Shown: positions 3,981 to 25,858 of the stretch, in pieces | Position numbering within the stretch: the stretch's first letter is position 1 | Layout: the number at the start of each line of letters is the position of its first letter | Virus genome (UHGV): UHGV-0154499 | Direction: 5' to 3' (one strand) | DNA length: 39,490 nt | Source: a virus | The notes under the pieces: generated by a model | What the model saw: only the letters and a program-made list of their open reading frames with translations | Told to the model about the DNA's origin: nothing | Database searches by the model: none | Position numbers and translations under genes: made by a program

Positions 3981-4020
3981 ATTCCTATCCCTTTGAGTCA
4001 ATTTGCTAAAATGGTAACAG

Positions 4021-4057
4021 GGAAAAGACAGCGACAAAACCCGCAGTTAAGCGGGTT
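4021..4057 (-). terminator. Rho-independent terminator downstream of the KilAC antirepressor gene
   Basis: Minus-strand hairpin AACCCGC-TTAAC-TGCGGGTT followed by TTTGTCGCTGTCTTTT. Confidence 0.5.
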
Positions 4058-4093
4058 GTGAGTAATACGATGAATACTTGAACTGTAGCCTGA

Positions 4094-4837
4094 TCAGGCC
4101 ACACTAGCCCCTTGGAGCAAATGTCGTAATGCCTTGATGCCTTCAGAGTTATAGCGAAACGCCTCAACCTGTTTATCGGAATGTTTCGACTTGTCGAGGA
4201 AGAATTTACCGTATTGCTCTGTTTTCAGATTGTGCTTGTTAGCCAAGCGACCAACCTTATTGGCAGAACAGCCGATCTCAGCAGCAACTTCTCCAGCGGT
4301 AGCGTAGTGTTCATCAATCAACGGCAAAGGCATGACCTCGTGCCCAAGCAGTGGATTAACAAGCGTTGCAACGATCACCTGGTTTGCTGATTCACCAAGT
4401 CTTGGGAACATTGACATCAACTCACGAGCTGAGGCGATATTTTTCTCCAGCGCCAGCGCTTTCAACTGCTCCGCCTTTGCACGTCGATATTCAGGAAGAC
4501 CCGAGCTATTTTGCGCTGAAATCTGGATAGCCTGCATATCTTCCAACTTATCAACTAGAGAACGTCGAACTGCTTTCGATTCACGAGCTGCTACGCGGAG
4601 GGCTTGCTTGATAGACATTGTAATTACTTCAATGTCTTGACCATTTTTACGACCTACACTTTTTGTGTAGGTCTCACCATCAAGCTCATCGACAACTTTC
4701 TCAATGAACTTGTTATTTCGGACAACCGGCTCACCGCACTGCTTTCGCGCGGCATTCACCATCTCCAGCAGGTACTGACTGTCAATGGTTTTCTCGGTGA
4801 CAACGCTACCCTTTGATGCTAAATTTAATGAAGTCAT
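4094..4837 (-). CDS. Phage antirepressor-like protein, KilA-C/ANT C-terminal domain
   Basis: C-terminal ATAGEVAAEIGCSANKVGRLANKHNL matches the KilAC (ANT) DNA-binding pattern; AAGGA RBS 9 nt upstream of the ATG. Confidence 0.65.
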   Translation of the reverse strand: MTSLNLASKGSVVTEKTIDSQYLLEMVNAARKQCGEPVVRNNKFIEKVVDELDGETYTKSVGRKNGQDIEVITMSIKQALRVAARESKAVRRSLVDKLEDMQAIQISAQNSSGLPEYRRAKAEQLKALALEKNIASARELMSMFPRLGESANQVIVATLVNPLLGHEVMPLPLIDEHYATAGEVAAEIGCSANKVGRLANKHNLKTEQYGKFFLDKSKHSDKQVEAFRYNSEGIKALRHLLQGASVA

Positions 4838-4864
4838 TAAGTGGTCCTTATGACGGTTTCATGG

Positions 4865-4899
4865 ATAGCCGATAGCTCGAACTATCGGCTATTCTTTTT
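4865..4899 (+). terminator. Perfect 11-bp inverted repeat with a plus-strand T-run (terminator-like, or a regulator binding site)
   Basis: ATAGCCGATAG-ctcgaa-CTATCGGCTAT followed by TCTTTTT, between the BRO-N and antirepressor genes. Confidence 0.4.
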
Positions 4900-4913
4900 G
4901 CATTTAAGCAAAT

Positions 4914-5495
4914 TCAATAAATCCTCGGTCGTTCTCCCTGTTGTAGTTGTTGATCAGCATATTCCTTAATCATATATATGAATGCCGCCCCATCATTAAA
5001 ACGATCATGAAGGCGACCAGCCAAAGGTGACTCTATTGCCCTCAAAGCTGGTTCTATCTGGTTAAACCATGCTTCACACATAACCTCGAAATAATCGAAC
5101 ATTGCGTTTGCATTGTGGGCGTGGATTTCACGATTGCTGAGCATCTTTGTTGCTGGAATGTTTATAGAAACCTCACGATCCAGAATGTCTAAAACCCAGC
5201 GTCGGAATTCTTTAGCAACTGGAGTTCTGGCAAACATAGCGACCATGTGTGCGCCACGTAGAGAAAAAACCCGAGTTTCCTGATTCCCACCAGGGGTGGT
5301 CAACCTGACCACCCTTGTCATTTTTTCTGTAAATTCATCACAATGCCTAGCATGTATGCGCTGTACAGCCTTATCGTCTGCATACTGAAGCGCAAAACCG
5401 ATCTGATTTGCGCTCAACCAAATTCCATCGATATCGGAGATGGTCTGAAAAGATACGCCTTGGAAGTTAAGCTCTGTTTTGGTTACACTATTCAT
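4914..5495 (-). CDS. BRO-N domain protein (phage antirepressor/regulator family)
   Basis: BRO-N-like N-terminus (ELNFQGVSFQTISDIDGIWLSANQIGFALQY...RVFSLRGAHMVAMFARTPVAKEFRRWVLDIL). Start set at the internal ATG (MNSVTK) with an AAGGAAA RBS; the track start at 5591 is GTG and overlaps the upstream small gene. Confidence 0.7.
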   Translation of the reverse strand: MNSVTKTELNFQGVSFQTISDIDGIWLSANQIGFALQYADDKAVQRIHARHCDEFTEKMTRVVRLTTPGGNQETRVFSLRGAHMVAMFARTPVAKEFRRWVLDILDREVSINIPATKMLSNREIHAHNANAMFDYFEVMCEAWFNQIEPALRAIESPLAGRLHDRFNDGAAFIYMIKEYADQQLQQGERPRIY

Positions 5496-21278: not shown

Positions 21279-22151
21279 TTAAAAAGCAATATCAATTAGT
21301 TCTCCTTTGCTCAATATTTTTCTAAAAATTTCAGCTCCATAAAGTGTAATAACACCTTCCAGAGTACAAAGAGGTTCCTTAGCACGAGCCATACATAAAC
21401 CACTTTTAGCACCGCCATTTAGTTTAGTATGAAGTGTTTTTGTAAGAATAGCAGCGAGTTCTAAGTCACTTATCTCTGCTACCGTATTTTTATTCAATTG
21501 TGACCTTTCGATTAGTTGAATAAAAATATCGATTCGACCAGGAGTTAACCCAAGATCTTGTGATAGCTCGTGTATTAAACCCCGTAAATCAACTTCAGCC
21601 TTAGGAGTAAAACGCCAATGTTTTATACCAAACTCTTTACCGTTACATGGTGCACCGATAACAACAGCCCTAAGTAAACTTAAAAATCCTTTACAAAACA
21701 CCCAGTTACCATCCGAGTATTCAATACCAAAATCACCACCCACACTATTTTTACTGTAAATATAATGATAATCCTCTGGTATACCAGACTCATGAACATC
21801 ATTACATCTTAATAAATGGTAAATTATATCTTCTGGTGCTGTCTCAGCTACTATCAACTGTGGGATTTCATCCCAATAATATGCTTCCTCAGGAAGGTTA
21901 TACCCCATAATTTGTTGTAACCTTACACGGAGAAATCTTTTATATTTTTCCCCATCTGTCATTCGTTTTTTTTGGGCTTGTCCCTTTGTTTTTTTTGGTT
22001 TAGTTATGGGTTCTTGTTCAAAAGGGAAAACTTTGAGAGCTGATCCAGATATAGCTGTCACCAAAAGCAGAAGTGCAGCTTCGTAACGACTATGAGAAAT
22101 CAAAAAATCAACATCATCCAAGCGTTTTTTTATGTTACTTACCTTTTGCAT
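21279..22151 (-). CDS. Hypothetical 290-aa protein, AT-rich accessory gene (moron) between cos and the lysis cassette
   Basis: Complete ORF with ATG, flanked by AT-rich noncoding DNA on both sides; GC visibly far below the phage backbone; no recognisable motifs. Confidence 0.6.
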   Translation of the reverse strand: MQKVSNIKKRLDDVDFLISHSRYEAALLLLVTAISGSALKVFPFEQEPITKPKKTKGQAQKKRMTDGEKYKRFLRVRLQQIMGYNLPEEAYYWDEIPQLIVAETAPEDIIYHLLRCNDVHESGIPEDYHYIYSKNSVGGDFGIEYSDGNWVFCKGFLSLLRAVVIGAPCNGKEFGIKHWRFTPKAEVDLRGLIHELSQDLGLTPGRIDIFIQLIERSQLNKNTVAEISDLELAAILTKTLHTKLNGGAKSGLCMARAKEPLCTLEGVITLYGAEIFRKILSKGELIDIAF

Positions 22152-23387: not shown

Positions 23388-23542
23388 ATGTATACCGGAT
23401 TAAACCACTATTAATAGTAGGGATTAGAATTCACCTAAGATGATGAAATTCAATTTAATTTAAGTCACAATAAGACTTAAGATAAATCTTAATGATTTCA
23501 TCTTCTTTGCGGGTTGTAGCGATGTCGCTGCGACTCGCTTTT

Positions 23543-23824
23543 TTATTTGTGCACAGCATCAATAAGCCGCGCTACGTTGCCTCTGACGGCGACCAGCACG
23601 GACAAGAAAATAATGTTGGCCCCGATAGTGGCCCACGATGAGTAAGGGTAGATACCACACAGATACGCCAACGGAACGGCGCTGTAGATGACCGTAAGCA
23701 GCCACGCTAAGCGAGATATCCACGGTCGATGTCGGGAATCACCACGACGGTAAAACATCAGGGTCAACACTATCCCAGCGCAAAGCAGCGCGTTGATTGT
23801 TGCCGATGGGTCATTTAGTACCAC
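23543..23824 (-). CDS. Small membrane protein of the lysis cassette (second holin or antiholin-like)
   Basis: 93 aa with 2-3 predicted TM segments; overlaps the upstream holin gene by 14 nt. Confidence 0.55.
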   Translation of the reverse strand: MVLNDPSATINALLCAGIVLTLMFYRRGDSRHRPWISRLAWLLTVIYSAVPLAYLCGIYPYSSWATIGANIIFLSVLVAVRGNVARLIDAVHK

Positions 23825-24197
23825 CTGAACCTCCCCGGCGCGTTATCAGCGCCACCAGCGAGCCGACATCCTGGTTATTCAGAAACGTCAGGATTTTGAC
23901 AGCTAAAGCAGAAACGATTACGGCCCCGATAGCGTCCAGAGGCTTATCACTGTAACCAGTCCAGTCAGCCAGCTTTGAACCAACCAGCCCTGAGCAGATG
24001 ATCCCGGCAATGTAGGACACGACAAAATACGCCAGCCGGCGCGCTGCACTAAGGTCCGCGGCGGTTGCAATGTAAAATACAGCCCCGGCAAATGCGCCAA
24101 ACACCACGCCGTAATCGGTTCCGGAAAGAAATCCATAGACACTGGCCCCCGTCAGGACACCACCAGCCAGTCCAGTACCGGAAATCGGATCGGACAT
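23811..24197 (-). CDS. Holin-like membrane protein
   Basis: 128 aa, glycine/alanine-rich TM segments, charged C-terminus; first gene of the late lysis cassette. Confidence 0.65.
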   Translation of the reverse strand: MSDPISGTGLAGGVLTGASVYGFLSGTDYGVVFGAFAGAVFYIATAADLSAARRLAYFVVSYIAGIICSGLVGSKLADWTGYSDKPLDAIGAVIVSALAVKILTFLNNQDVGSLVALITRRGGSGGTK

Positions 24198-24240
24198 TTA
24201 GCCCCCTCTTTATTGCTGTGAGTCCTCTCAGAACGAGGGG

Positions 24241-24272
24241 AAAACAAAAAAGGCCGCCCTTGGGCAGCCCTT
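24241..24272 (-). terminator. tR'-like intrinsic terminator just upstream of the holin gene (candidate target of Q antitermination)
   Basis: Minus-strand GC-rich stem (GGGCTGCCCAAGGGCGGCC) followed by TTTTTTGTTTT, about 50 nt upstream of the holin start. Confidence 0.5.
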
Positions 24273-24379
24273 AAATGCATTAAACCTCATAAAAATGAGG
24301 TTCAGATATCGTTTTAAGTCCGTGGCGTAGAAACCACTCTTAACATGCTACATAATAAAATGCGGACCGCACAAAGGTT

Positions 24380-24420
24380 TTTTGATAAATTAAAGACTCA
24401 CAGCACATTAAAGTTCAAAT
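24380..24420 (-). promoter_or_regulatory. Candidate late promoter PR' (minus strand)
   Basis: TTGAAC-18 bp-TTTAAT on the minus strand, upstream of the tR'-like terminator; placement relative to Q is unusual. Confidence 0.3.
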
Positions 24421-24448
24421 GTTAACTATTAGATTCCAAAGGAATATT

Positions 24449-25390
24449 ATGACGACTGCAGTTGCGGTAAAAAAACCCAAAAAACTACGAATTGGATTCT
24501 ATACAAGTAGTTCTGGAACCATTCGGAGCCACTCTGTTGCCAAAGCTGCGATCGATAACCTTTACAGTACTTGCGTAAATGTAACTAATAATCATTTCGA
24601 TACTATATATAAAAATAAAAAATTGAAAATCGCATTTATTAATAAAGATGCCAATGCTAAATATTATTTTGGCTATATGTCTTGCTCAAGGGAAGAATAT
24701 CTACTGCCTTATATTGGAGATGAGAACTGGAAAGAACACAACATCCCATTAGATGATAAAAAATATATTGTCGAGCGCACTTATTTTTTGTATTACTACG
24801 AAAGTGACATTCTGATCCTTACGCAAAATCATCTTGGCCCCAAGGAATCGGATCTGGCTTACCTTTTATACAGCCAGAGTGGTCAACCAGGTAACAACTT
24901 TTCTTTCCAAGCTATTTGGAAGAAAGAAAGTATAAAAGAGCTTCTCGAAACAGGAAGTACACTTAGAAGCTGCGATCTCATTCTTGCTGCCCCAAGAAAT
25001 TTCGATGTGACTAATTATCAGTTAGATAGCTCATTTTCAAAAGATCTTCTGAATATGATGGTTGGCCTTGGCGGCACACATTTAAAACTCAATCTTAGGG
25101 GTAGAGCATCTGGCAGAGTTAAAGTTAAAGGCTATCTTTCGGATCTGATAAAAGATGGTATTAAAGAATTATTAGAAAAAATGCCAAATATTGTCAAAAA
25201 AGCAGCAGTAACACAGCCCAAAAATACTGTAGAGCAAAGCCTTCTTGAACAAGTTCTCATTTCGGAGAAAAACATTCATACCGTAAATGGTTATGGCACA
25301 GATAGCGATGTGCTCCAAGCGATGATTTCTGCTAAAATTGACAACAATGGTTACCTTATCCAGTACGACATAAGCAATAAGAAGGTATAG
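24449..25390 (+). CDS. Hypothetical soluble protein (313 aa), first gene of a two-gene accessory cassette; RexA-like by architecture
   Basis: AT-rich ORF; start at internal ATG with an AAAGGAA RBS; lysine-rich, no TM segments. Possible weak similarity to RexA from memory (GFY near the N-terminus, LGPKESDL...LL), unverified. Confidence 0.6.
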   Translation: MTTAVAVKKPKKLRIGFYTSSSGTIRSHSVAKAAIDNLYSTCVNVTNNHFDTIYKNKKLKIAFINKDANAKYYFGYMSCSREEYLLPYIGDENWKEHNIPLDDKKYIVERTYFLYYYESDILILTQNHLGPKESDLAYLLYSQSGQPGNNFSFQAIWKKESIKELLETGSTLRSCDLILAAPRNFDVTNYQLDSSFSKDLLNMMVGLGGTHLKLNLRGRASGRVKVKGYLSDLIKDGIKELLEKMPNIVKKAAVTQPKNTVEQSLLEQVLISEKNIHTVNGYGTDSDVLQAMISAKIDNNGYLIQYDISNKKV

Positions 25391-25393
25391 TTT

Positions 25394-25837
25394 ATGTTAT
25401 TGAGATATATAGCAAATATTTTAGGGAGCATTTTACTAACATATTTCTTACTGAAGTATGTCCCACTAATGCAACATAATGATATTCTTACGTCCGCAGG
25501 GGTTATCTCCACTGTGTCTGGGATTTTGTTTGGGTTTGTGCTTGCCACCATTTCAATTTTTAGCGCAGCTAGCGCTAATTCAAATGGGGTTTTAAAGGCC
25601 TTAAAAAACAATAACATACTCCAAGGAATTGTAACTAATTTATTAGCCGCTGGAGCGACATTAATTACAGCATGCTTGATTTCACTCGTTGCCATGTTTG
25701 TCAGTGACAATTTAGTCTACAATGACCAAAAAATAGAGTTTATATTCATAATTCAATCATTATCACTATTGATAGTAGCCGTCATAATGTTTGGGTTTAC
25801 TTGGCGTAAAATTAATTGGTTTTTACCACACATATAA
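25394..25837 (+). CDS. Small integral membrane protein with four predicted TM helices (147 aa); RexB-like by size and topology
   Basis: Four hydrophobic segments (about residues 5-24, 34-58, 75-103, 115-137); starts 4 nt after the upstream gene's stop; GAAGGT RBS. Confidence 0.6.
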   Translation: MLLRYIANILGSILLTYFLLKYVPLMQHNDILTSAGVISTVSGILFGFVLATISIFSAASANSNGVLKALKNNNILQGIVTNLLAAGATLITACLISLVAMFVSDNLVYNDQKIEFIFIIQSLSLLIVAVIMFGFTWRKINWFLPHI

Positions 25838-25858
25838 AAGGGCATCCGTGCCCTTTTT
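25837..25858. terminator. Bidirectional intrinsic terminator between the membrane-protein gene and convergent Q
   Basis: AAAGGGCA-tccg-TGCCCTTT with T/A runs on both sides, immediately after both stop codons. Confidence 0.65.

Follow-up and report, generated by a model that had tools for sequence, protein, structure and literature searches.

The question raised by this locus is where late transcription begins in a phage whose Q antiterminator gene is separated from its late genes. The phage is UHGV-0154499, and the window is the whole stretch of its DNA that was analysed, 39,490 nucleotides (nt), to which all positions refer. The phage genes of the region are transcribed on the minus strand and run in the order RusA, a KilAC-type protein, a DUF968 protein and Q, followed by a cassette on the opposite strand, a region of 250 base pairs (bp), two holins (24197-23811 and 23824-23543), a GH19 endolysin, spanins and terminase. 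A preliminary description of the sequence had noted the accessory cassette between Q and the late promoter PR', which is present as stated, and had argued by elimination that PR' and its qut element must lie within 24198-24448. Comparison with phage H-19B, Sakai prophage Sp5 and 13 further loci, together with the fit to a mapped transcript of 258 nt, now puts them there. Sequence comparison makes it highly probable that 24385-24238 on the minus strand is a Q-dependent late transcription unit of the type found in the Shiga toxin (Stx) phages and in the cryptic prophage DLP12. The unit, its parts and the two phage genes that frame it are as follows.

26222-25860, minus strand: gene of the Q antiterminator, 120 amino acids (aa), Q21/Q933W family, Pfam PF06530.
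24385-24238, minus strand: late transcription unit, promoter to terminator, from homology and conservation.
24378-24383, minus strand: A-tract at -45 to -40 of PR', resembling the proximal subsite of an UP element; consensus TAAAAAAA, upstream of the palindrome in an alignment of 62 sequences.
24362-24370, minus strand: palindrome GCGGTCCGC at -32 to -24, predicted Q-binding element, conserved in position in the 62-sequence alignment.
24345-24350, minus strand: -10 element of PR', TAGCAT, with T-12, A-11 and T-7 invariant in the 62 sequences.
24334-24342, minus strand: TAAGAGTGG, invariant columns spanning -4 to +5, with the predicted start at A24338; candidate sigma-dependent pause element.
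24326-24329, minus strand: TACG at +10 to +13, fitting the TNYG scrunched-pause consensus; G +13 is invariant.
24283-24302, minus strand: leader hairpin 1, from folding and covariation, apparently a weakened copy of the family's first terminator hairpin.
24238-24272, minus strand: tR' terminator, a 10-pair stem plus TTTTTTGTTTT, from a structure scan and folding.
23811-24197, minus strand: holin, the first late gene (Phage_holin_8, PF16931, E 3.2e-34), with its ATG at 24197.

The promoter-proximal part of the late unit that lies directly behind Q in H-19B, Sakai Sp5 and the 13 other loci has its homologue in the segment 24385-24334. In H-19B and Sakai Sp5 the homologous sequence GATAAGAGTGGTTAC is found 18 nt past the Q stop, with TATCAT and the palindrome ACGATCGT upstream of it, and this is the known location of the late promoter in these phages. 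In Sakai, the PR' start and the 3' end at tR' were mapped 258 nt apart by Sy et al. (PMC7547250). When the Sakai start is set at the A of TAAG-A-G, position +258 is the last T of the tR' T-run. This fit points to TATCAT, which has the same position in H-19B and Sakai as TAGCAT in the window, as the -10 element. Transferred to the window, it gives TAGCAT (24350-24345) as the -10 and A24338 as the start. There is no good -35 element at the window PR', and the A-tract may serve as an UP-element proximal subsite, a functional reading drawn from the consensus. Two other promoter assignments were discarded. The sequence TTGAAC-18-TTTAAT (24418-24389, minus strand) is confined to loci that carry the window cassette, and neither mEp390 nor the cargo-free loci have it; TATTAT (24357-24352) as a -10 is unconserved in the family, and the TAnnnT six bases downstream of it is invariant.

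We then compared Q loci across the family. The sample of 85 loci was made up of the window, four loci from phages and 80 that encode relatives of the window Q, with a single genome taken for each species. The region downstream of Q was searched for TAAGAGTGGT with one mismatch allowed, and for the stricter pattern TANNNTGNTAAGAGTGG. The first motif turns up in 63 of these loci; the stricter pattern has exactly one match in each matching locus, always on the Q strand. The motif lies 1-68 bp from the Q stop in 15 loci, the Stx phages among them, and 0.5-2.9 kb from Q in 48, including the window, with varied opposite-strand cargo in between. In the window the Q stop codon is at 25862-25860 and the distance from it to the late motif is 1518 bp. 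The late unit thus does not directly adjoin Q as in the textbook cassette (drawn in 10.1101/651190), nor does it in 48 of the 63 related loci, which is a matter of layout and not of mechanism. The preliminary description implied that such a layout is unusual. The displacement is real but ordinary: DLP12 has it too, and it is the majority state in this branch of Q. The textbook mechanism of Q is unchanged by these findings. For this phage they give a predicted position of the late start, and for annotation pipelines they show that PR' cannot be assumed to lie immediately behind Q.

A composite of the palindrome and the start-site pattern, GCGGNCCGC-N11-TANNNTGNTAAGAGTGG, matches the window once (24370-24334, minus strand) and has no match in 100 shuffled sequences, and the features described here are not due to chance. 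The invariant columns of the 62-sequence alignment are T-12, A-11, T-7, G-6, TAAGAGTG (-4 to +4), the CG of the right half of the palindrome and G +13. A BLAST search of phage records found the same layout in mEp390, which carries a different, single-gene cargo, in vB_EcoS-733R5, which has the same cassette and another holin, and in cdtI, which has the same cassette. Common to all three is a core of GCGGTCCGCA, 16 nt ending in TAnnnT, and then GTTAAGAGTGGTT.

The same conserved core could be read as the divergent promoter of the cassette, with the palindrome as the operator for a cargo repressor. The region is directly upstream of the cassette start and contains overlapping plus-strand promoter-like hexamers, and a palindrome is typical of a site for a dimeric repressor. 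However, the same core and palindrome are found directly behind Q in the 15 cargo-free loci. Although the cargo changes from locus to locus, in 48 unrelated clusters, the core stays the same and always points in the direction of Q and the late genes. In Sakai it coincides with the mapped PR' start. We regard this explanation as remote.

Five palindrome types occupy -32 to -24 in the 62-sequence alignment and a sixth is found in DLP12, and all six are palindromic. Each type corresponds to one clade of Q, both where Q adjoins the unit and where unrelated cargo lies between them. The residues of Q aligned to the Q21 DNA contacts K94, H95, T125 and R127 differ among the types. The types, the number of sequences and the residues at these four positions, in that order, are listed below.

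GCGGnCCGC, 17 sequences: K, R, I/L/Q/M, R.
GCGTACGC, 31 sequences: L, R, T (29 of 31), R.
GCGyTACGC, 7 sequences: K, R, variable, R.
TCGTwACGA, 6 sequences: K, S, K (5 of 6), R.
ACGATCGT, Stx phages, 1 sequence: with the DLP12 type, F, M, C/Y, G.
ACGTACGT, DLP12, 1 sequence: residues as given with the Stx type.

The same Rex-like cassette is present with two Q/palindrome types, one in the window and the other in a Xenorhabdus locus (L020). Because the palindrome type tracks the Q clade and the residues at the Q21 contacts, the palindrome is probably the Q-binding site. The Q933W/QuuD branch controls the release of Shiga toxin, and we found no definition of its Q-binding site in the searchable literature; the six clade-tracking types offer a directly testable candidate.

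The assignment of a pause element is less firm. Besides the TAnnnT of the -10 element, just one -10-like sequence is invariant, (T)AAGAGT with GG behind it. By analogy with the similar AACGAT-GGG of lambda and TAAGCT of phage 21, it may act as the sigma-dependent pause element. There is no conserved TAnnnT further downstream of the start in the family alignment. The TACG at +10 to +13 fits the TNYG scrunched-pause consensus and its spacing (bioRxiv 10.1101/2022.01.24.477500), the distance from the hexamer being similar to that in lambda and phage 21. With moderate confidence, and again by analogy, we predict a pause near +12/+13. A downstream pause element TACATT (+7 to +12) was rejected; it is present in the Stx phages, but the column is unconserved in the family. 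The small stem GTGG/CCAC at +2 to +17 was also set aside, as 84% of cells are paired with zero both-side changes, which is no evidence of structure.

There is at least one intrinsic terminator between the promoter and the late genes, since both hairpin 1 and tR' are located there. The tR' stem is AAGGGCTGCCCAAGGGCGGCCTTT (24272-24249, minus strand), with six of its ten pairs G-C and TTTTTTGTTTTCC behind it; its folding energy is -17.2 kcal/mol (z -3.7). The preliminary description had seen a tR'-like terminator about 50 nt upstream of the holin, and the T-run does end about 41 nt ahead of the holin ATG. Hairpin 1, AACCTCAT/ATGAGGTT, was found within 1 nt of where that description had put it. 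Its folding energy on the late (minus) strand is -12.2 kcal/mol (z -5.9), which no shuffled sequence reaches. At its position in the alignment 87.5% of cells are paired, compared with 40-57% in slid controls, and seven of the eight pairs show changes on both sides. Most relatives have a GC-rich ACCTCGC-loop-GCGGGG here, followed by a T-run. The window has an AT-rich stem and the tail UUUAAU at this position, and the main stop is therefore probably the stronger tR' that follows, rather than hairpin 1. The whole leader of 101 nt folds at -38.2 kcal/mol (z -5.1). A search of the leader against Rfam 15 reached no family, the best scores being 20-23 bits against gathering thresholds of 41-80. The weak matches (STnc340, Phe_leader and mmgR) are generic terminator matches driven by the terminator hairpins.

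It had been suggested that hairpin 1 may be part of a qut or of a 6S-like RNA. As part of a 6S-like leader the suggestion holds up; as a Q-binding DNA site it does not, because the hairpin is in the short leader RNA, at a position where the family keeps a paired stem that in most relatives is a terminator. A related possibility is that 24283-24302 is a functional antitermination element acting as RNA, put-like or qut, and not the remnant of a terminator. The pairing is kept by compensatory changes across the family, and in the Stx phages transcription passes the equivalent hairpin to give the mapped RNA of 258 nt. On the other hand, a GC-rich stem directly followed by a T-run, as in most relatives, is the anatomy of an intrinsic terminator, and the loop and stem sequences are unconserved. 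Additionally, the Q21 structures show that factors of the Q family act through a DNA site and the RNA-exit channel of the polymerase, with no need of an RNA structure (10.1101/651190; PMC6606751). We consider an RNA element of this kind very unlikely and favour a weakened terminator.

Just past tR', at about 24240-24257, there is a mosaic junction. Eleven Escherichia coli genomes have Q, the cassette and PR' in common with the window up to about 24240 and carry a different holin, and about 190 others have only the holin module in common, from about 24257-24280.

The late genes might instead be transcribed mainly from elsewhere, with transcripts running on from the early operon or starting at a promoter within the cassette, TTGACA-18-AATAAT (25197-25168, minus strand), in which case 24198-24448 would supply terminators only and the transcripts would be antisense across the cassette. 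The site is inside the DUF6731 gene of the cassette and matches 11 of 12 consensus positions. N-type antiterminated early transcription can pass terminators in lambdoid phages. The site is kept in 733R5 but not in cdtI or in L026, which have the same cassette and read TTTACA, with AGGAGT for the -10. It lies in coding DNA of 35% GC where such matches are expected, 10 promoter-like sites being found compared with 7.4 in shuffled sequences. There is no Q-site motif near it, and transcripts from it would still need Q to pass the two terminators, for which the loading site is at 24370-24334. The antisense promoter is unconserved and is probably a chance match in AT-rich DNA, and we judge this route to the late genes highly improbable.

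Taken together, the data are best described by transcription from PR' under the control of Q. In the mechanism that we propose, host sigma-70 RNA polymerase would start at about A24338 from a promoter made up of the A-tract and TAGCAT. In the absence of Q, transcription would stop at hairpin 1 or at tR', giving constitutive short RNAs of about 60 and about 98 nt. Q would be made from the early operon 1.5 kb upstream and would act in trans, binding the palindrome and loading onto polymerase that is held by sigma at (T)AAGAGT and paused near +12/+13. So modified, the polymerase would transcribe through the two hairpins and on into the genes for holin, endolysin and morphogenesis. Between Q and the unit there would be a slot for cargo, occupied here by a RexAB-like pair with a promoter of its own, which runs towards Q and terminates at the bidirectional hairpin next to the Q stop. 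The cassette would in this way sit outside the late transcript, and the terminator would shield it from early transcription.

Several points weigh against this picture. The late unit is known here from sequence comparison, and 22 of the 85 loci have no motif at up to one mismatch. The Sakai start was matched by transcript length and not by coordinates, as the genome version used in the paper differs. The (T)AAGAGT sequence spans -4 to +3 and overlaps the start site, whereas its counterparts lie downstream, at +1 to +6 in lambda and +2 to +7 in phage 21, and its role as a pause element is uncertain because of this. The correspondence of palindrome type and Q clade may partly mirror shared ancestry. 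Finally, the Q21 element is a direct repeat, whereas the candidate here is a palindrome with 4-bp half-sites that would need a different binding geometry.

The window Q covers the full profile of PF06530 (E 4.6e-53), which is the Q21/Q933W family (10.1101/651190). It has 45% identity to Q of the H-19B/933W type and 81-85% to the Q proteins of cdtI and mEp390; its match to the solved Q21 chains 6p18/6jnx is weak. The Stx phages (H-19B, 933W and Sakai Sp5/Sp15, the source of the small RNA StxS) have a PR'-qut-tR' unit served by the same Q family (45%). Like the window they have a palindrome at about -31 to -24, a TAnnnT -10, (G/A)TAAGAGTGGTT, a first hairpin and tR', and in both cases a short terminated leader RNA is expected without Q. 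They differ in having the unit 18 nt past the Q stop, a Q frame that enters the promoter, and ACGATCGT as the palindrome. The leader in these phages is 258 nt with the cargo (stx) downstream of tR', whereas the window leader is about 98 nt and its cargo is upstream of PR' on the other strand.

The displaced layout of the window is seen again in DLP12 of E. coli K-12. There quuD is followed by hairpins, a reversed nmpC (interrupted by IS5), the unit and the holin gene essD. The unit upstream of essD consists of the palindrome TTTACGTACGTAAA, TATGCT, GTTAAGAGTGGTTAC and a terminator; palindrome-TATGCT-GTTAAGAGTGG-terminator is the same series of elements as in the window. The differences are a porin gene as cargo in place of the Rex-like pair, the palindrome TTTACGTACGTAAA itself and the defective state of the prophage. 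The DLP12 lysis operon is reported to be controlled by a Q-type antiterminator (PMC7918800). Phage 21, the structural paradigm of the family, has a PF06530 Q like the window. It also has a Q-binding element located between -35 and -10, a pause element resembling a -10 beside the start and a terminator within about 50 nt, and the predicted elements of the window follow the same layout. Its annotated record gives a -35 TTGACA, the Q element ATTGAGCA/AATGAGCA at -27 to -12, the start, TAAGCT at +2 to +7 and a terminator ending at +50, an order that agrees with PMC6606751. In phage 21, however, the element is a direct repeat beside a good -35 and the unit is directly behind Q. Additionally, Q21 has a long loop in its helix-turn-helix which the window Q does not have.

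The gap between Q and PR' raises the further question of what is carried there. Its features in the window are as follows.

24449-25837, plus strand: cassette of two genes, convergent with Q, from open reading frames (ORFs).
24449-25390, plus strand: cassette gene 1, DUF6731 protein of 313 aa from ATG 24449, with a RexA-like fold.
25394-25837, plus strand: cassette gene 2, 147 aa, with four hydrophobic segments (hydropathy), RexB-like.
24382-24409, plus strand: candidate cassette promoter, TTGATA, a 16-nt spacer and CACATT; weak and below the scan threshold.
25834-25858, both strands: bidirectional hairpin terminator, read and folded, serving both Q and the convergent cassette.

GC content is 32-40% in the cassette and the intergenic region, compared with 52-56% in the flanking phage genes, in agreement with the AT-rich character reported earlier for 24198-24448. 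A bidirectional terminator at the Q stop had also been proposed, and the hairpin AAAAAGGGCA-CGGA-TGCCCTTTTAT (25858-25834) does fold on both strands, at -11.9 kcal/mol on the minus and -11.4 kcal/mol on the plus strand. It begins 2 nt past the Q stop, overlaps the stop of the 147-aa ORF (25837) and has an A-run before it and a T-run after it. A divergent cassette promoter within 24198-24448 is plausible from weak consensus matches, and there is a counterpart, TTGATA-16-CATATT, in 733R5.

A RexAB-type system has a cytoplasmic protein with the RexA fold and, adjacent to it, a small four-helix membrane partner, RexB. The DUF6731 protein has the former fold, and the four hydrophobic segments of gene 2 agree in number and are in the same positions as those of lambda RexB (144 aa). 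In lambda the pair is beside the repressor gene, whereas the window pair is between Q and PR', and comparison of the cassette proteins with lambda RexA and RexB gave no significant sequence similarity. The link to Rex is one of fold and membrane topology only. Gene 2 belongs to phrog_8552 and has no Pfam or PADLOC match, and the cassette as a whole matches no PADLOC model. The cassette is a candidate exclusion system on the strength of its setting, that is, the known defence genes of the slot and a neighbour in Klebsiella. In four Klebsiella loci (L089-L092, positions 4001-5407) DUF6731 and a protein of 145 aa form a pair in an unrelated type of prophage. This pair is reversed with respect to its neighbours and is located between a superinfection-immunity gene and a primase gene.

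Among the displaced loci there are 80 ORFs of at least 70 aa in the gaps (one to three genes per gap), of which 79 are on the strand opposite to Q, and all 80 together form 48 sequence clusters. Cargo proteins sampled from other loci matched PADLOC defence models in 13 of 21 cases. The matches include PD-Lambda-5_A (twice), PDC-S20/PifA-like, TIR-TM, a TIR effector and an AriA/Gabija/Old-like ATPase, and further PDC-M11A, PDC-M53A, PDC-M66B, PDC-S42 and PDC-S49. In at least 28 of 47 displaced loci, Q is followed within about 50 nt of its stop by a hairpin that has a T-rich tail. These hairpins are non-homologous between cargo types, and this variation with the cargo suggests that the terminator travels with the module. 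In the cargo loci the Q frame stops right after L(E/D)MD, and the insertion point is thus the end of functional Q. In the cargo-free loci (L004, L013, L016, L017, L048 and others) the frame runs on for 15-25 codons, through the palindrome and the -10. This variable C-terminal tail, missing where there is cargo, is probably dispensable.

The gap between Q and PR' looks like a defence hotspot, and it should be a useful place for finding defence genes. Similarly, in P2-like phages and P4-like satellites interchangeable defence genes occupy a fixed position between conserved phage genes (PMC9122126). Those hotspots are in another phage group and at another position, whereas the slot described here splits a regulator gene from its own target promoter. 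We found no description in the literature of a cargo slot between Q and PR' or of DUF6731. Three inferences would go beyond the known picture, namely that Q has a palindromic site, that the gap serves as a slot for defence cargo and that DUF6731 is Rex-like. The joint proposal is that the gap is an insulated slot for defence cargo across the Enterobacterales prophages of the Q933W/QuuD branch, that it holds an undescribed RexAB-like system here and that Q loads as a symmetric dimer; we offer it tentatively, at somewhat less than an even chance. If it is true, the slot exchanges whole modules, each with its own terminator. Cargo outside the late transcript and shielded by a terminator from the early one could be expressed in the lysogen without disturbing the lytic programme. 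The palindrome would then mean that Q of this branch is loaded in the form of a symmetric dimer, whereas Q21 uses a direct repeat.

Two further features were seen among the late genes. Between the spanin genes and the small terminase subunit there is an ORF of 290 aa (21279-22151, minus strand) with no match in Pfam, PHROG or PADLOC, and it could be a second accessory gene, in this case within the late operon. Between the second holin gene and the endolysin gene there is an AT-rich gap of 155 bp (23388-23542). This contains a strong plus-strand terminator-like hairpin (23509-23538) of 13 pairs followed by a T-run, which may belong to a small antisense or inserted RNA gene.
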